From sequence record NC_018835.1: DNA of 64,000 nt. One strand, written 5' to 3'. The notes beneath the pieces were generated by a model. The model saw only the letters and a list, made by a program, of their open reading frames with translations, was not told the origin of the DNA and searched no databases. Of the stretch, positions 4,000 to 16,289 are shown piece after piece. The first letter of the stretch is position 1, and the number at the start of each line of letters is the position of its first letter. The translations under genes were made by a program, and so were the position numbers. This DNA is from Escherichia phage NJ01.

Positions 4000-4264
4000 A
4001 TACTTTTTCAAGTATTTTTCACTTTCCAGCCTGATTTTTAAAGAGCGCGCGGCGTATGTTTTACATCGTACCCGATGAAAATCAGTATACGCCAGCTTTC
4101 AGGAAGTGCAATAGGGTAAAGCAAATTATTTTAAACTTTTTCACTATAGGAAGGTAAAAGAGCGGGCGCACGTGATACAACACAGAAAACGGCTTGTAAA
4201 GCGATATTTAGCGGCCTAAAACGCACCACAGCGAGCTAAAAGGGAGTAAGGAATACAATCACCT

Positions 4265-4295
4265 TAGAAAAGAAAAAAGCCTCATGGCGAGGCTT
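4265..4295 (-). terminator. rho-independent terminator (minus strand)
   Basis: Hairpin AAGCCTC-ATGGC-GAGGCTT with A-run on + strand (U-run on minus transcript), downstream of gene ending at 4371. Confidence 0.45.
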
Positions 4296-4370
4296 TCAGG
4301 AGGTTTTAAAGCATTAGATAGATTGTGACCATAGGAATGACCACGGCACAATAAAGGAGAAAGATTAAGC

Positions 4371-4736
4371 CTATGGATTTACACATTGACCATTACCGGA
4401 CTCAATTTCATTCATGGACTCATCAAAGAGCGTCAACGATGAGCGCATCAAGTGATTGACCGTGATTTGTTTACCAGTGATTTCATTTACCAGTAAAATA
4501 GTTTTACTATCTGATTGCACATGATCAAAATCATTTACATGCAAAATAATAACTTTAGGTGACTTTTTACCGGTTTCATAGTTTTCTATAAGGTAGGTAC
4601 ATTGCAAGCCGTCAACCGTAGCAGGGGAAAACGTTGCAGCCTTAACGCTACCCATAGCCGATAACAGCACACCTAACAGAAGAATGACCAGAAAAAAGCC
4701 TACAACCGTTTTAACGACGAATCTAATAAACCACAT
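4371..4736 (-). CDS. membrane-anchored or secreted protein (121 aa)
   Basis: N-terminal hydrophobic segment VVGFFLVILLLGVLLSAMG. Confidence 0.5.
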   Translation of the reverse strand: MWFIRFVVKTVVGFFLVILLLGVLLSAMGSVKAATFSPATVDGLQCTYLIENYETGKKSPKVIILHVNDFDHVQSDSKTILLVNEITGKQITVNHLMRSSLTLFDESMNEIESGNGQCVNP

Positions 4737-4929
4737 AGCAATAAACCTCTTTAATTAGTTTAAGAATATCGAAAGCGGCAACAATCAATAAATAGTTTAA
4801 AGAAACGAAGCCAATGACAAACAAAAACAGAAAGAACACAACCGGACACCTAAAAAACGTAAGAATAAAGCATATCAGCGACGAATAACGCCACTGTAAC
4901 AACGAATAAGCAACGCAAAAAATAATCAT
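4723..4929 (-). CDS. small hydrophobic membrane protein (68 aa)
   Basis: Two predicted hydrophobic helices. Confidence 0.4.
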   Translation of the reverse strand: MIIFCVAYSLLQWRYSSLICFILTFFRCPVVFFLFLFVIGFVSLNYLLIVAAFDILKLIKEVYCYVVY

Positions 4930-4941
4930 GAATCATTTTTA

Positions 4942-5193
4942 TCACCATTTTGGCAGATCGCAATCCAGAAGACCAGCAAGCGACAAACCACCGTCAATGT
5001 AAATTGATCGGAAGTCATCGCGATTTATATCAATGCGCACCAATTGAAGCCATTTTTTTGCCTCGTTAAAACTCATGGAACAAAAGGCAACGGTAGGCAC
5101 TGTAACCTGACCATCTCGCATATTAAATAGAATGACGGTATCACCAATAAAACAAGAAAAGCCGTTGGATAATTTAACTTCTTTGATAGCCAT
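4942..5193 (-). CDS. hypothetical protein (83 aa)
   Basis: ORF track; compact spacing with neighbours. Confidence 0.45.
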   Translation of the reverse strand: MAIKEVKLSNGFSCFIGDTVILFNMRDGQVTVPTVAFCSMSFNEAKKWLQLVRIDINRDDFRSIYIDGGLSLAGLLDCDLPKW

Positions 5194-5219
5194 GTTTTAC
5201 ACTCCTGAAAATTGGTTAT

Positions 5220-5711
5220 TTACTTACTGGCCTTGATGCAGTTGGCTAGATTGACATGAACGGTATAAACAGCGTTATCCGCATTATTGTAAACCGTGGT
5301 GGCAATCATCGACTGATTAACCGGGCCATAACTGACCAGATTCGTGACAGCTTTCGCATGGCTGTAACGTTGTACAGTGCCATACGTCACCATATCCGCA
5401 TCGTTATCAGTACGCTTGAGAACTAGATCACTGTTAGGCTGATTGTCTAGTGTTTTGGTACTAACGACCAGACCATCACGGGAAACGTTACTAAATTTAA
5501 CCTTTAAAACGACCTGATTGGTGTCACTATCAGCACCATTGCAAATCATCCAACCTTTATTGATGGAACTAACGAAGACACTAGCCGCATCAGTTGCAGG
5601 AGCAGGACTAGCAACAGCCTTATCAGGAAAGGAAGTTACCAGCGCACTAACACCGATCGCGGCGACTAGTGCATAACTTGCCAGATTAATCATCTGCATT
5701 GGTTTAATCAT
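5220..5711 (-). CDS. secreted protein with signal peptide (163 aa)
   Basis: N-terminal signal-like MINLASYALVAAIGVSALV, two Cys; fimbrial/Ig-like flavour, unassigned. Confidence 0.5.
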   Translation of the reverse strand: MIKPMQMINLASYALVAAIGVSALVTSFPDKAVASPAPATDAASVFVSSINKGWMICNGADSDTNQVVLKVKFSNVSRDGLVVSTKTLDNQPNSDLVLKRTDNDADMVTYGTVQRYSHAKAVTNLVSYGPVNQSMIATTVYNNADNAVYTVHVNLANCIKASK

Positions 5712-8038: not shown

Positions 8039-8512
8039 ATGTTTGGAGAAAACGGAGAACTCACACCTGCACAGGTAGCTGAGATTACAGGAAGATTACC
8101 CGGAGTAACGGAAGAACTTGAAGGCCGTGGTATGAACCCAAGCAATGGGAAGTTTCAAAAGGGAAATAAATTCGGACGACCCAGAGGTAGTAGAGGTAAA
8201 CTGACACAATTAATGTTGGACCGTGTTGCTGCAAGTCATTTGTCTCCTGATGAAGTGTTAATTCAAATTTACGAAGATCCTAATATTCCACCTGATCTTA
8301 GATTCAAGGCTGCATCAAAAGTTGCAGATCTGGTATATCCTAAGGCGGCCTCTGTTGAAGTTAAGATTGAGGAAGAGAATGTAATCAACGAAGAATCATT
8401 GAATGCACAAATCAAGGACTTCTTGACTGGAGCACTTGGTATCGATGTTATGCCTCCAGAAGAAGACAACTCTGAGGACGCTGAAAAGGGGGAGGAAGCG
8501 GACGAGAGTTAA
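8039..8512 (+). CDS. putative terminase small subunit
   Basis: Position immediately upstream of large terminase; acidic C-terminus; no direct motif. Confidence 0.4.
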   Translation: MFGENGELTPAQVAEITGRLPGVTEELEGRGMNPSNGKFQKGNKFGRPRGSRGKLTQLMLDRVAASHLSPDEVLIQIYEDPNIPPDLRFKAASKVADLVYPKAASVEVKIEEENVINEESLNAQIKDFLTGALGIDVMPPEEDNSEDAEKGEEADES

Positions 8513-12722: not shown

Positions 12723-13807
12723 TGCCACAAGATAATTATATTGACCCGAACGATTTTAAATCTTTCCTCCAACTGGATGACCTGAAAGGCTCTTTTAAAG
12801 AAGAGCTTGGTCGATTAGAATCTGAACAAGAACCAGAAGTGGACATTGACGACGAGTTCCCGGAAGATACCGGTGACAACTTCGACTTTGATACCGACCT
12901 TCTCGGTGAAAGCGATGAGCTTAAGTTCGAAGATGAAGATGGTTGGGAAGATCATGATGAGGAAGGCGAAGTCGAAGAAGATGGGGATGACTCTGACGAA
13001 GGTGATGAAAACACTGAAGCAGAAGAGGAAGACTCAAGCGATGCAGGATATGAAGATGATTCTGCTGACGGTGATGGTGAAGTCTTTGATGTAGACTACG
13101 AAACCGTTATCACCCTTCCTGATGGACGTGAGATGACTATTGAAGAACTCTCCAATGGCTATCTTACTGGTGCTGACATGACTGAACGAGAATCAACTCT
13201 TCAGCGTCACATGGAAGCATTTGAGGAACGTGTAGTAGGTTTGAAGGATGTATTAGAATTAGCGTCTTTAGAAGCAGACCGAGTAATTGAAGATTACAAC
13301 GGATTTGATTGGGACAAGCTTGCAGTAGAAGATCCTCAAGCATATGTTGAAAACAAACGTTTCCTAGAGAAGTACACAGCTCGTCGTAACCAGCTTGAAC
13401 AGGCTCAGATGCGTGTTAAGCAGGAAGCAGCAGCTAAAGAACAGGAAGCTTTCCAAGCCAAAAGTGTTGAGTGCGTTAATATTCTGAAACGTGAGATTCC
13501 AAATTGGGATGAAAACTTATATCAAAACTTAATGCAATATGCAATTGACTTAGGTGCTACTGAAGAAGAAGTATTGAAGGAAAACCGTCCGTCTATTTTC
13601 CTAGCTCTCCATAAAGCATACCAATTTGATAAAGGTAAGCAGCAGGTGATGGCTAAGATTAAACGTCCCGGTGCTCCACGCAAGGTTGTGAAGTCTGATG
13701 CTGCAAAGTCTCGTACTTCCAATAAGCCAGACAACGCTAAGGTTGCCAAGGCATTCGCAGAGGGTCGCGTTAGTCACGAAGACGCATTCAAATTCCTCGT
13801 AGATTAA
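12722..13807 (+). CDS. scaffolding protein
   Basis: Highly acidic N-terminal half (D/E runs), coiled-coil, position before capsid. Confidence 0.55.
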   Translation: MPQDNYIDPNDFKSFLQLDDLKGSFKEELGRLESEQEPEVDIDDEFPEDTGDNFDFDTDLLGESDELKFEDEDGWEDHDEEGEVEEDGDDSDEGDENTEAEEEDSSDAGYEDDSADGDGEVFDVDYETVITLPDGREMTIEELSNGYLTGADMTERESTLQRHMEAFEERVVGLKDVLELASLEADRVIEDYNGFDWDKLAVEDPQAYVENKRFLEKYTARRNQLEQAQMRVKQEAAAKEQEAFQAKSVECVNILKREIPNWDENLYQNLMQYAIDLGATEEEVLKENRPSIFLALHKAYQFDKGKQQVMAKIKRPGAPRKVVKSDAAKSRTSNKPDNAKVAKAFAEGRVSHEDAFKFLVD

Positions 13808-13848
13808 TCGACAAATTAATTATTTAATAGTATAGGAGCTAACATAAC

Positions 13849-14910
13849 ATGGCTAATCCAACTTTATTTGTATCGTATGACCAGAATGGTAAAAAACTTT
13901 CTTTTGCTAACTGGATTTCTGTTCTGTCCCCTCAGGATACTCCGTTCGTATCTATGACCGGTAAAGAGTCTATCAACCAGACTATCTTTAGCTGGCAGAC
14001 CGATGCACTGGCAAGCGTTGATGGTAATAACGCACACGTCGAAGGTTCTCGTGCTGAAGACGGCGAAATGAAACCGACTGTTATCAAGTCTAACGTTACT
14101 CAGATTCTGCGTAAGGTTGTTCGTGTTTCTGACACTGCTAACACCACCGCTAACTACGGTCGTGGTCGTGAACTGATGTATCAGCTGGAGAAGAAAGGTA
14201 AAGAGATCAAGCGTGACCTCGAGAAAATCCTTCTGTCCGGTCAGGCTCGTACCGACGTTCTGGCTGACCAGTATCTGACTAACTCCGCAGCTGATCCGAC
14301 TCAGATTGGTAAGAACGACACCCATGCAGCTCGTAAGACTGGTGCATTCCAGTTCCTGTGTGCTCACGGCGGTCTGACTGGTGGCGTTGTTGACAAAACC
14401 AAGAATGGTCCTGCTGACCCAGATACCGGTGCTGTAACTGTTAAAGTTGCACAGAACGCTTCTAACCCGGCTACTAACATCGGTTTTGATGAAGCAGATA
14501 TCTTTGATATGACTCTGCAACTTTACACCGCTGGTTCTGAAGCAGATATCATCATGATTAACCCGGCTCATGCTAAGATCTTCGCTGGTCTGCAAGAAAA
14601 CACTCAGGGTTCACGTAAGCGTATCTTTGAGAACACCAAGCAGTTCATCTACGAAGTTAACAGCATCACTGACCCGCTGGGCCAGAGCTACAAAATCATC
14701 GTTAACCGTTGGATGCCTACCGATGCAGTTTACTTCTTCCGTAGCGCTGACTGGACCCAGATGGTTCTGCGTGCTCCGAAACGTACCGAACTGGCAAAAG
14801 ATGGTTCTTACGAAAAATGGATGATTGAGATGGAAGTTGGTCTGCGTCACCGCAACCCGTATGCTTCCGGTGTTCTGTTCACTGCTGCGGGAAAGGCAGT
14901 GGCGGCGTAA
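13849..14910 (+). CDS. major capsid protein (353 aa)
   Basis: Position after scaffold, size; slippery site and out-of-frame Ig-like extension at 3' end. Confidence 0.7.
   Translation: MANPTLFVSYDQNGKKLSFANWISVLSPQDTPFVSMTGKESINQTIFSWQTDALASVDGNNAHVEGSRAEDGEMKPTVIKSNVTQILRKVVRVSDTANTTANYGRGRELMYQLEKKGKEIKRDLEKILLSGQARTDVLADQYLTNSAADPTQIGKNDTHAARKTGAFQFLCAHGGLTGGVVDKTKNGPADPDTGAVTVKVAQNASNPATNIGFDEADIFDMTLQLYTAGSEADIIMINPAHAKIFAGLQENTQGSRKRIFENTKQFIYEVNSITDPLGQSYKIIVNRWMPTDAVYFFRSADWTQMVLRAPKRTELAKDGSYEKWMIEMEVGLRHRNPYASGVLFTAAGKAVAA
14889..14895 (+). promoter_or_regulatory. candidate -1 programmed ribosomal frameshift slippery heptamer G_GGA_AAG
   Basis: GGGAAAG in X_XXY_YYZ register of capsid frame, 13 nt before capsid stop; -1 frame open to 15437. 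Confidence 0.55.
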
Positions 14911-15437
14911 CAGTAGATACCATAACTGTTAGTCCTTCGTCGGTTGCAAGCCTTCCGACGGGGGCTACTCAGCAGTTTACAGCTACAGCACAAATGAGTG
15001 ATAGCTCCACATCAACAACTGGATTTGTTTGGTCCGTTGAGGGTGGTGGGGCTATTTCTGTTTCTGGACTGTACACTGCACCGAGTGCGTCGCAAGAAAC
15101 CCCGATCACAGTGAAAGCTACTAAAGGTGGTAAATCCGGTACATCTACAATCTCAGCTATTGCTGACCCTGAACCTACAATTGTAAGTCGTGGTCCTATT
15201 GCTGGTAAAGTCGGTGGTTCTACTACTGCCTTCTCTACAATGTTTACTGTAACCAATTCTGCTGGTAGTGATTATGATTTTGTTGTAACCCCTACTGAAG
15301 CAGGTACTGTCAGTGCAGCTGGTCTTTTGACTCTTGCTGATGCTGCTACTGGTACAGTCTCTGTTGCAGCTACACACAAGACTAAACCTCTTGTAACAGC
15401 CACTTGTGAATTCACAGGTGTTACCCCCAAAGCCTAA
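14895..15437 (+). CDS. capsid C-terminal extension with two Ig-like (BIG2-type) domains, reached by -1 frameshift
   Basis: -1 frame reads GSGGVTVDTITVSPSSVASLPTGATQQFTATAQ... through ORF 14994..15437; Thr/Ser/Val-rich beta-sandwich-like sequence. Confidence 0.55.
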   Translation, partial: GSGGVTVDTITVSPSSVASLPTGATQQFTATAQMSDSSTSTTGFVWSVEGGGAISVSGLYTAPSASQETPITVKATKGGKSGTSTISAIADPEPTIVSRGPIAGKVGGSTTAFSTMFTVTNSAGSDYDFVVTPTEAGTVSAAGLLTLADAATGTVSVAATHKTKPLVTATCEFTGVTPKA

Positions 15438-15442
15438 AACTA

Positions 15443-15470
15443 AAGCTGCCTTCGGGTGGCTTTTCTTGTT
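15443..15470 (+). terminator. terminator hairpin with UUCG tetraloop
   Basis: AAGCTGCC-TTCG-GGTGGCTT followed by TTCTTGTTTT. Confidence 0.45.
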
Positions 15471-15494
15471 TTAAGACCTATACAAGCTAGTGTG

Positions 15495-15503
15495 TAATGT
15501 ATA
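15495..15503 (+). promoter_or_regulatory. TAATGTATA promoter-like element
   Basis: Exact TAATGTATA 33 nt upstream of ATG at 15537, RBS AAGGAGGA between. Confidence 0.45.
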
Positions 15504-15536
15504 TTCTTTGTCTACATATAACAAGGAGGACAACCT

Positions 15537-16289
15537 ATGGCGATGCCAGAAGTGCAAAACCCGATTAACACGTATGGCTGGCTTAAGAAAGCTGTTGCCT
15601 TGTGGGCCGATCGAGACGATGATGAATTTGTTAATCAAATTCCAAACTTTATTAACTTTGCAGAGAAAGAGATTTATCGTAACTTACGTATCCCTCCTCT
15701 GGAAAAAGAAGTGTATTTAGATATTAAAGATGGAGTAGCTTACATTCCTCCTGATTACTTAGAAGCTCAATGGATGATGAGAGCCAAAGATGGTACAATC
15801 TTCCAAGTAACATCTCCTGAAGAGATTAGCTATCGTAGACAGCATGGAACAATTAACCCATCTCATTGGAATAACCAACCTGTTAACTTTGCTCGTTTCG
15901 GTAGTCGTTTCATTTTCTACCCTAGTATTGAAGCAGATACTCCTGTTTATCCTGATGATGGAAGTCCTTTGATTCCAGCAGAAAACTCAGTAATTCTCAG
16001 TTATTATGCAGACCCACCGGAATTCCATGAAGATGCAGATACCAGTGCTATTCTTACTATTGCACCAGAACTTCTTCTGTATTTCACTCTACGTCACGCT
16101 TGCTTATTTGTTCAAGATGATAATGGAGTTCAGAAATGGTCTGCATTAGGAAAAGCTATCCTTGATGAAATGGTAGAACAGAATAAGAAACAAGAGTACT
16201 CAGGTTCACCTATCGCAATTCCGAATAACATGACTCGACTTCAGAGCAGCTTGCCTGACATTTATGGTATTCGTACTTCTCGTGTATAA
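15537..16289 (+). CDS. virion structural protein (250 aa), possible head-tail adaptor
   Basis: Position after capsid; no motif recognised. Confidence 0.4.
   Translation: MAMPEVQNPINTYGWLKKAVALWADRDDDEFVNQIPNFINFAEKEIYRNLRIPPLEKEVYLDIKDGVAYIPPDYLEAQWMMRAKDGTIFQVTSPEEISYRRQHGTINPSHWNNQPVNFARFGSRFIFYPSIEADTPVYPDDGSPLIPAENSVILSYYADPPEFHEDADTSAILTIAPELLLYFTLRHACLFVQDDNGVQKWSALGKAILDEMVEQNKKQEYSGSPIAIPNNMTRLQSSLPDIYGIRTSRV

Follow-up and report, generated by a model that had tools for sequence, protein, structure and literature searches.

A −1 frameshift in the last codons of the major capsid gene has been published for phiEco32 and Paul, for SU10 (PMC4281155), for YF01 as a Kuravirus (PMC9965538) and for the Proteus phage Privateer (PMC7881722), and the RefSeq note on phage Paul annotates the frameshift and cites PMID 18294652 for phiEco32. 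In these phiEco32-like phages (phiEco32 gp11/12, Paul gp009, YF01 gp8, SU10 CDS9/10 and Proteus Privateer), the heptamer GGGAAAG lies at the end of a capsid gene of the SU10_MCP family, and a shift in the −1 direction appends an Ig-like extension. Two capsid products have been reported for relatives (PMC7881722, PMC4281155 and the annotation of Paul), a point that is disputed for SU10 (PMC9509320, PMC9965538). The DNA analysed here, i.e. the whole stretch of 64 000 nucleotides (hereafter the window), is 99.8 % identical to Escherichia phage 172-1 (Kuravirus kv1721) and belongs to a member of this group. Its locus shares the heptamer and its position, the −1 direction and the Ig-like extension with these phages. 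While the frameshift is annotated in Paul, it is not in the record of 172-1, where the capsid gene is labelled 'major head protein'. The frameshift site at the end of the Kuravirus capsid gene is real, ordinary and already described, and the 172-1 annotation simply lacks it.

Several better known systems resemble the locus in part. The slippery heptamer G_GGA_AAG and the −1 direction are those of the lambda G/GT shift, and the heptamer is identical to that of lambda, as the initial annotation had stated; in Escherichia coli, the lambda shift has an efficiency of a few per cent (PMC9965538 quotes ~3.5 %). However, the lambda products are non-structural tail chaperones whose extension is not Ig-like and which bear no sequence relationship to the capsid protein in the window, where the shift would extend a virion shell protein. 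A parallel had also been drawn with 10A/10B of T7, and it stands as far as T3 and T7 are podophages whose major capsid gene undergoes a −1 shift close to its 3' end and so yields a minor longer subunit; the capsid family and the slip site are different, and it is the T3 10B extension that is Ig-like, whereas that of T7 is not (PMC5009743). The phi29 capsid protein gp8 (PDB 6qvk, 8f2n) likewise forms a prolate head and carries a C-terminal BIG2 domain matching the first Ig-like module of the window, but this domain is fused in frame and present on every subunit without frameshifting. Finally, the locus follows a general pattern of mobile Ig-like domains at the C-termini of virion proteins, often attached by −1 or +1 frameshifting (Fraser et al. 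2006; Lactobacillus phage A2, Listeria phages A118 and A500; PMC5009743), although those phages and their capsid families are unrelated to the one studied here.

The features of the locus are listed in Table 1. The product of the capsid ORF matches the Pfam family SU10_MCP with an E value of 7e-77 and 259 bits (gathering cut-off 24.1). The heptamer reads as G_GGA_AAG because a zero-frame codon has its third base at position 14889, and it is separated from the capsid stop codon TAA (14908-14910) by 12 nt, which bears out the earlier claim of a slippery sequence in X_XXY_YYZ register shortly before the capsid stop. As a plain string, GGGAAAG is present at chance level (nine copies on both strands of the window versus about eight expected), but this is the only copy in register when the ORFs of 100 aa or more on either strand are considered. 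The −1 frame is open from position 14829 to the stop codon at 15435-15437, i.e. for 182 codons from the heptamer, in agreement with the roughly 180 codons claimed before. By comparison, these ORFs contain 48 X_XXY_YYZ heptamers in register, which served as a chance control; their median open length in the −1 frame was 8.5 codons and the second-best 32.

Table 1. Features at the end of the capsid transcription unit, with positions in the window
Feature	Position	Strand	Basis
Major capsid protein gene, zero frame	13849-14910	+	ORF list; Pfam PF17236 SU10_MCP; 353 aa, 38.8 kDa
Predicted hairpin of 7 bp whose loop contains the heptamer	14880-14901	+	Folding; putative element
Slippery heptamer GGGAAAG (G_GGA_AAG in X_XXY_YYZ register)	14889-14895	+	Computed register
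−1 extension read after the slip	14895-15437	+	180 codons plus stop; third-position substitution bias upstream of ATG 14994
Hairpin H1 (UAACAGU-N10-ACUGUUA), begins at the capsid stop codon	14908-14931	+	Folding
Ig-like domain 1 (Big_2)	14913-15152	+	Pfam PF02368 match; AlphaFold2 strands at extension residues 7-86
Hairpin H2, 10 pairs, adjoins H1	14932-14965	+	Consensus fold of the alignment and pair counts
ATG, RefSeq start of 'Ig domain containing protein'; probably no real start	14994-14996	+	No Shine-Dalgarno sequence; codon not conserved
Ig-like domain 2 (diverged module of Big_2-like type that is repeated in relatives)	15177-15425	+	AlphaFold2, Foldseek
Intrinsic terminator: 9-bp stem, UUCG loop, T-rich tail	15442-15473	+	Stem-loop 15442-15463, tail TCTTGTTTTA

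Taken together, ribosomes very probably undergo a programmed −1 frameshift in the last codons of the 172-1 major capsid gene, which gives rise to a minor long capsid protein with two Ig-like domains. The −1 reading of the initial annotation gains support, since the sequence-level predictions of a programmed −1 shift as to site, frame, conservation and coding constraint hold and the same event has been published for close relatives. Our evidence consists of the site and its register, the open frame, the conservation of these features, the constraint on the −1 frame as coding sequence, the modelled fold of the extension and the absence of a separate start; the existence of two capsid species is taken from the literature on relatives. 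Most ribosomes would read GGA-AAG and four more codons and stop at TAA 14908, giving the 353-aa capsid protein. A minority would slip back by one base, with the Gly and Lys tRNAs on G_GGA_AAG probably re-pairing to GGG-AAA, and would read on from GGC at 14895 for 180 codons up to TAA 15435. The predicted long isoform comprises capsid residues 1-349 plus the extension (529 aa, 56.0 kDa) and would end in two Ig-like domains of Big_2 type in tandem, preceded by a short linker of Gly and Ser. The predicted junction, FTAAGK followed by GSGGVTVDTITV, is the same as the one proposed before; a trypsin site falls exactly on it (between AAGK and GSGG), and the sequence across it reads FTAAGKGSGGVTVD. 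Another predicted peptide, GSGGVTVDTITVSPSSVASLPTGATQQFTATAQ, is encoded in 14895-14993, upstream of ATG 14994. We expect the long form to co-assemble into 172-1 virions as a minor subunit and to expose its Ig-like domains on the outer face of the prolate head, where they would probably bind weakly to carbohydrates or to cell surfaces.

In the extension, the first module matches Big_2 (PF02368) over extension residues 9-81 (nt 14913-15131) with 28.3 bits against a gathering cut-off of 22.8, and resembles the phi29 capsid BIG2 domain by phmmer (E 0.0017) and Foldseek (32 % identity, 100 columns). Using AlphaFold2, the 180-aa extension was modelled as two all-beta domains with a mean pLDDT of 96, the second of which is a beta-sandwich at about residues 95-177 with pLDDT above 95. 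The best Foldseek match of the extension in the PDB was Leptospira LigA (E 3.8e-11), with whose tandem Big domains both modules align. The second module had no match to any Pfam family at E up to 1 and shows a weak similarity to the first (31 % over 58 aa, E 0.002); going by the model, it is Ig-like by fold rather than by a PF02368 match. The two BIG2-like modules claimed before are confirmed as Ig-like, the first by Pfam and both by AlphaFold2 and Foldseek. Modules of the second type occur in four copies in Paul. The 172-1 extension belongs to the Paul/TH34 sequence type and is about 67 % identical to the phiEco32 type. In addition, 172-1 differs from the group by a 3-nt insertion right after the heptamer, so that its linker is GSGG and not GGG.

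In the RefSeq and GenBank records, the Ig-like ORF is annotated as a separate gene (ORF29 in RefSeq), which would produce a free protein of 147 aa and about 15 kDa from ATG 14994, acting as a capsid decoration or elsewhere, with the heptamer being a coincidence; similarly, the SU10 structure paper regards gp10 as a minor capsid protein in its own right that may be bound weakly (PMC9509320). We consider this highly improbable for 172-1. The only in-frame start codons of the −1 ORF are ATG 14994 and GTG 15111. There is no Shine-Dalgarno sequence in the 20 nt upstream of the former, whose position is occupied by AAA or AAG (Lys) in phiEco32-type genomes, and the annotated starts of this ORF represent three different choices in three phages. 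Moreover, the Big_2 domain begins at 14913, 27 codons before ATG 14994, so that initiation at this ATG would truncate the domain; no conserved start with a ribosome-binding site, as expected of a decoration gene, was found upstream of the complete Ig domain. Of the variable alignment columns in 14911-14985, 5, 3 and 14 fall on −1 frame codon positions 1, 2 and 3, respectively; judged from this pattern, the stretch between the capsid stop and ATG 14994 is evolving as coding sequence in the −1 frame. An independent start for the Ig-like ORF was rejected on the grounds of the missing Shine-Dalgarno sequence, the unconserved codon, the truncated domain and this upstream coding constraint. The conservation of the heptamer and of the frame relation far beyond chance argues in the same direction. 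As for transcription, no sigma-70-like site that could act as an internal promoter between the capsid stop and the Ig-like ORF was present on the + strand in 13600-15700; the TAATGTATA promoter motif was absent from 13849-15437, and a literature search for it gave unrelated papers only. The same long protein could in principle arise if RNA polymerase slipped during transcription, which requires runs of about 7-9 identical bases to be productive. With homopolymer runs of only G3 and A3, and with a motif whose register permits tRNA re-pairing in every lineage, we regard such an origin as extremely improbable.

A further question is whether the frameshift, even if real, matters to the phage, i.e. 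whether the long isoform might be a by-product that is dispensable or not incorporated, with an extension that is perhaps being lost in laboratory-adapted stocks as in SU10. The case for this comes from SU10, which propagates with a broken extension ORF and a uniform capsid, and from Vibrio phage Vp_R1, which has no extension at all. In SU10, the structural reference for the genus Kuravirus, the −1 ORF is broken after 13 codons, the head shows no extra density by cryo-EM and no larger band was seen (PMC9509320; PMC9965538). The SU10 sequence, as deposited, shows a perfect palindrome of 25 nt within 8400-8440. Mass spectrometry had identified 'gp9+10' in this phage (PMC4281155), but by our own reckoning the reported peptide coverage (78.1 % of 352 aa, i.e. 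275 aa, versus 50.29 % of about 528 aa, i.e. 266 aa) can be explained by gp9 peptides alone. SU10 is a natural knock-out of the long isoform, and therefore its uniform capsid should not be generalized to the genus. In 172-1, on the other hand, the 180-codon ORF is intact, under purifying selection and encodes a confidently modelled fold, and the arrangement is kept across several phage genera. In addition, lineages without the shift possess a long capsid paralogue with an in-frame Big_2 domain instead, which argues that the long isoform is selected for in nature. A dispensable by-product is therefore improbable, and the programmed frameshift yielding a displayed minor subunit remains the preferred reading.

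This conservation extends well beyond the closest relatives. GGGAAAG is invariant in the 15 distinct sequences of the Kuravirus group that were compared, and in the genomes and metagenome contigs of this group that were examined it lies in register 9-12 nt before the capsid stop, followed by −1 ORFs of about 180-547 codons, with SU10 as the exception. In capsid homologues at 30-65 % identity, a −1 ORF likewise starts from an in-register X_XXA_AAR site, here located 0-3 nt before the stop, i.e. G_GGA_AAG-TAA in Proteus P59, G_GUA_AAG in Aeromonas LAh_9 and soil contigs, A_GUA_AAG in Serratia KSP100, and A_AAA_AAG, C_CCA_AAA and C_CCA_AAG at three other loci (L014, L042 and L040, respectively). 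All of these ORFs encode Ig-type domains except that of L014, where the extension has 44 codons, and the Ig families behind the slip site differ among relatives (Big_2, I-set). A −1 ORF of 120 codons after the stop in capsid homologues L055-L061 (~30 % identity) was rejected as a frameshift product; it is the next gene, since there is no slippery site and the encoded protein is unrelated. More speculatively, and with odds that we consider rather low, the capsid C-terminus of this family may be an ancient and conserved recoding 'dock' built on an A_AAR lysine slip, with a varying first half (GGG, GGU, AGU, AAA, CCC), behind which Ig families have been swapped and which some lineages have replaced by a duplication of the capsid gene, with one short copy and one long in-frame copy; in Kuravirus, the conserved hairpins H1 and H2 could be an unusually spaced stimulator.

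While the 172-1 site leaves the current understanding of frameshifting unchanged, it has consequences for annotation. In RefSeq and GenBank, 172-1 and many Kuraviruses from phage-therapy work are entered with a truncated 'Ig domain containing protein', and a joined capsid CDS like that of Paul is due. The surfaces of therapeutic candidates from this genus probably display a variable number of Ig-like domains, i.e. two in 172-1 and up to six in Paul, and these may affect adsorption to mucus or cell envelopes.

Regarding possible stimulatory elements, no structure was found at the canonical distance of 5-9 nt downstream of the heptamer, with H1 beginning at 12 nt (9 nt in phiEco32) and H2 at 36 nt. 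H1 is AU-rich, and all seven of its pairs are invariant in 10 distinct sequences, so that there is no evidence from covariation. In H2, 100 % of cells are paired and two pairs show compensatory changes, in a set comprising three haplotypes only. The folding z score of the sequence downstream of the heptamer was −0.57 for 50 nt and −2.4 for 80 nt. No Shine-Dalgarno-like sequence was seen upstream of the heptamer, and the window encodes no tRNA that might modulate the slip. A stem equivalent to the putative hairpin with the heptamer in its loop, which had been noted earlier for SU10 (PMC4281155), is possible in all Kuravirus sequences that were folded.

The UUCG-loop hairpin previously noticed after the extension ORF scores as an intrinsic terminator. 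The terminator of the capsid transcription unit thus comes after the extension and not after the capsid stop, and SU10, Paul and 4E8 have an annotated terminator at the corresponding position, whereas relatives without an extension carry a terminator-like hairpin directly 3' of the capsid stop.

It is highly probable that the major capsid gene of Escherichia phage 172-1 is extended by a -1 frameshift, the mechanism proposed in the initial annotation. The slippery GGGAAAG lies just before the capsid stop codon, as described there, and is in the G_GGA_AAG register because 14889 is a third codon position; TAA 14908 starts 12 nt past the end of the heptamer. Likewise, the -1 frame proved to be open to 15437, i.e. 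for 182 codons from the heptamer, and the UUCG-loop hairpin noted 3' of the extension ORF is terminator-like: its loop is TTCG, and a T-rich tail follows. The heptamer alone occurs at chance level, with nine GGGAAAG on both strands of the window vs roughly eight expected. As a chance control, we took every X_XXY_YYZ heptamer of the window that lies in register within an ORF of 100 aa or more, both strands included (n=48): the open -1 length has a median of 8.5 codons and a second-longest value of 32, vs 182 at the capsid site, which is also the only in-register GGGAAAG in these ORFs.

Coordinates of the capsid region of the window and of the compared phage and contig loci
Feature	Position	Remark
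Major capsid ORF	13849-14910	ORF list
SU10_MCP	13849-14907	Pfam
Hairpin with heptamer in loop	14880-14901	Predicted fold, 7 bp
GGGAAAG heptamer	14889-14895	G_GGA_AAG register
Open -1 frame	14829-15437	Stop 15435-15437
H1	14908-14931	Predicted, UAACAGU-N10-ACUGUUA; begins at stop codon, 12 nt past heptamer
H2	14932-14965	Predicted, ten pairs; starts 36 nt from heptamer
Terminator-like hairpin	15442-15463	3' of extension ORF
SU10_adaptor	15537-16286	Pfam
TAATGTATA copies	15495-15503, 27098, 32326, 41795(-), 41867, 48566(-)	
Slip site, Proteus phage P59 (Privateervirus)		G_GGA_AAG, TAA directly after
Slip site, Aeromonas phage LAh_9 and several 82-97 kb soil or IMG/VR contigs		G_GUA_AAG
Slip site, Serratia phage KSP100		A_GUA_AAG
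Slip site, L009-L012, L019, L037, L038, L043	3912 or 3412	
Slip site, L021	3286	
Slip site, L016	3948	
Slip site, L014	3921	A_AAA_AAG
Slip site, L042	3538	C_CCA_AAA
Slip site, L040	4522	C_CCA_AAG, second capsid paralogue
Extension-length variation, L015 (Paul)	4041-5681	Kuravirus
Extension-length variation, L023 (Bas86), L026, L027, L030-L032		Kuravirus
Capsid paralogues, L017	1982-2920 and 3001-4794	Tandem
Capsid paralogues, L020	3001-3945 and 4020-6356	Tandem
Capsid paralogues, L039, L013/L041, L014		Tandem; three copies in L014

The site is real and the feature already known, i.e. the finding is a correct rediscovery, because the phage Paul record, the Privateer paper and a 2023 survey already describe the frameshift. 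The joined CDS of the Paul RefSeq record carries the note 'Frameshift at GGGAAAG; Frameshift in PhiEco32 major capsid protein product as well (PMID: 18294652)', while Privateer shows two capsid bands, the minor form having been detected by mass spectrometry (PMC7881722). The survey of Kuravirus-like phages lists 172-1 in the group and reports both the heptamer and the -1 extension in 'YF01 and other group phages', only SU10 having lost it (PMC9965538). Frameshift-appended Ig-like domains are a general theme (reviewed in PMC5009743); the precedent of T7 10A/10B invoked earlier holds only in part, since the extension is Ig-like in T3 but not in T7 10B (PMC5009743).

In a megablast search of GenBank phages with window 13800-15540, Escherichia phage 172-1 (KP308307 / NC_028903; Gordonclarkvirinae, Kuravirus) matched from end to end at 99.8% identity, and ~90 other phiEco32-like coliphages matched at 87-99%. 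The 172-1 record gives the gene order scaffolding protein, major head protein (ORF28), 'Ig domain containing protein' (ORF29) and virion structural protein, i.e. the adaptor. Its RefSeq version begins the Ig ORF at the internal ATG, with no frameshift (window 14994-15437 = NC_028903 18070-18513); the phiEco32, SU7 and 4E8 records use a GTG 30 nt past the heptamer, and the SU10 record yet another start. In GenBank, three phages have been annotated with three different starts, and only the Paul record, among the group records compared, has a joined capsid CDS. A corrected annotation of 172-1 is a useful output, as are several comparative side observations, and many group records likewise need mending.

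Independent expression of the Ig-like ORF would have to begin at ATG 14994 or GTG 15111, the only start codons in the -1 frame, and no Shine-Dalgarno sequence was found ahead of ATG 14994 in the preceding agtttacagctacagcacaa. Nor can this ATG be a conserved start, because the phiEco32 type has AAA/AAG (…AEKSD…) at the matching codon, and a protein begun there would miss the first 27 Big_2 residues, since the Pfam match starts at 14913. From the capsid stop to the ATG (14911-14985; 25 alignment columns per codon position), variable columns number 5, 3 and 14 at -1-frame codon positions 1, 2 and 3, a third-position excess that is the signature expected of translated sequence. For the frameshift reading, we compared 15 distinct Kuravirus-group sequences from IMG/VR contigs, metagenome contigs and GenBank records (phiEco32, SU10, ShigP1, ECBP2, KBNP1711, Paul, SU7, Bas86, 101114UKE3, 4E8, Ptacy1479 and TH34): all 15 keep GGGAAAG in register, 9-12 nt ahead of the capsid stop. 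Past the heptamer, the GenBank genomes have -1 ORFs of 180, 181, 219, 266, 461 or 547 codons; in metagenome contigs the range is about 180-546.

The predicted fusion joins capsid residues 1-349 to 180 residues (529 aa, 56.0 kDa; short form 353 aa, 38.8 kDa), with the junction …FTAAGK-GSGGVTVDTITV…. A database search found only 32 extension homologues, all phage or metagenome ORFs with assorted internal starts. The AlphaFold2 model built on their alignment (mean pLDDT 96) has two all-beta domains, modules 1 and 2; in the PDB its top Foldseek match is Leptospira LigA, whose tandem Big domains align with both modules (E 3.8e-11). Foldseek further matches the extension, at 32% identity, to the BIG2 domain at the C-terminus of the phi29 capsid protein, which a sequence search finds as well (6qvk). 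Of the two BIG2-like modules claimed originally, both are thus Ig-like, but only module 1 is demonstrably Big_2; module 2 gave no Pfam match and is weakly similar to module 1. The variation in Kuravirus extension length, from ~180 to 547 codons, arises through tandem copies of module 2, of which Paul has four, followed by a different C-terminal region.

A stimulatory RNA structure at the site is possible. The hairpin with the heptamer in its loop, already pointed out for SU10 in 2014 (PMC4281155), has an equivalent stem in all Kuravirus sequences folded; it cannot exist with the ribosome on the heptamer. Of two predicted hairpins 3' of the heptamer, H1 lies 9 nt past it in the phiEco32 type, with 7/7 pairs invariant; the ten pairs of H2 form in 10/10 distinct sequences, which represent only three haplotypes, and the two-sided changes at two pairs (G-C to U-A, G-C to U-G) come from these three haplotypes only and are partly non-synonymous. 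The 50 nt past the heptamer fold no better than shuffles (z -0.57), and the 80-nt fold has a z of -2.4. In distant relatives, hairpins start 6 nt (L009-L011, Proteus P59) or 20 nt (KSP100) past the site, each weak alone.

Distant capsid homologues show the same architecture with differing slip sites, all in register and 0-3 nt ahead of the stop. Their -1 ORFs are Ig-type with varied Pfam families, i.e. Big_2 twice, I-set alone, or I-set and Big_2 (the L042 and L040 extensions being called Ig-like by sequence only), with the exception of the 44-codon extension of L014, which had no Pfam match. What these sites have in common is a lysine codon pair, A_AAR, and in E. coli no other A-site motif is as prone to slip. 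At two variant sites the P-site codon is GUA, which re-pairs poorly and makes them non-canonical; this suggests that the conserved core is the A_AAG lysine slip. The 94-aa extension of the second capsid paralogue of L040 (4522-4803) is a clear homologue of 172-1 module 2 (GPITGKVGGSTTAFTTMFTVT…ATHETQ…) on a capsid only about 30% identical to that of 172-1, which implies that the module has passed from one distant capsid gene to another with the frameshift arrangement kept.

In SU10, a 1-nt insertion brings the -1 ORF to a stop after 13 codons, matching a capsid that is uniform by cryo-EM (PMC9509320). At 2606-2630 of the SU10 locus (L003), homologous to window 14908-14931, three clustered changes relative to its nearest relatives, 4E8 and phiEco32, convert the quasi-palindrome at the capsid stop (7-bp arms, 10-nt loop) to a perfect palindrome of 25 nt, its arms 12 nt long, and insert the base that ends the ORF. 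The pattern is what a template-switch 'quasipalindrome correction' would leave, so the change is probably a genuine mutation, with SU10 a natural knock-out for the long capsid isoform. Mass spectrometry of SU10 lists an 'alternative' head protein, 'gp9+10, 55.4 kDa, 50.29% coverage, 22 peptides' (PMC4281155, Table 2), gp9 being the capsid protein and gp10 the Ig-like ORF. From these data we computed about 266 covered residues for 'gp9+10' vs about 275 for gp9 alone (78.1% of 352); since the former are no more than the latter, we infer that the entry needs no Ig-domain peptide and by itself shows none, which would bring it into line with the cryo-EM and SDS-PAGE results obtained later.

Other relatives lack the frameshift. 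In Vibrio phage Vp_R1, the capsid stop is directly followed by a terminator-like hairpin, and Salmonella phages pSal-SNUABM-01 and PKM.Hi.22.6 and contig L039 carry tandem short (312-314 aa) and long (585-778 aa) capsid genes, with an in-frame C-terminal Big_2 region in the long paralogue of the two Salmonella phages (checked by Pfam). In these and other relatives with such a pair in place of the frameshift, the short paralogue is followed by a terminator-like hairpin; one 125-kb contig has three consecutive paralogues. A short-plus-long capsid pair is thus reached by different genetic routes in different lineages, which argues that the long isoform is selected for.

The window also holds six copies of TAATGTATA vs 0.69 expected. 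It resembles the promoter element used by the phage sigma factor of phiEco32, although a literature search gave no confirmation of this; one copy lies 3' of the capsid terminator, ahead of the adaptor gene.
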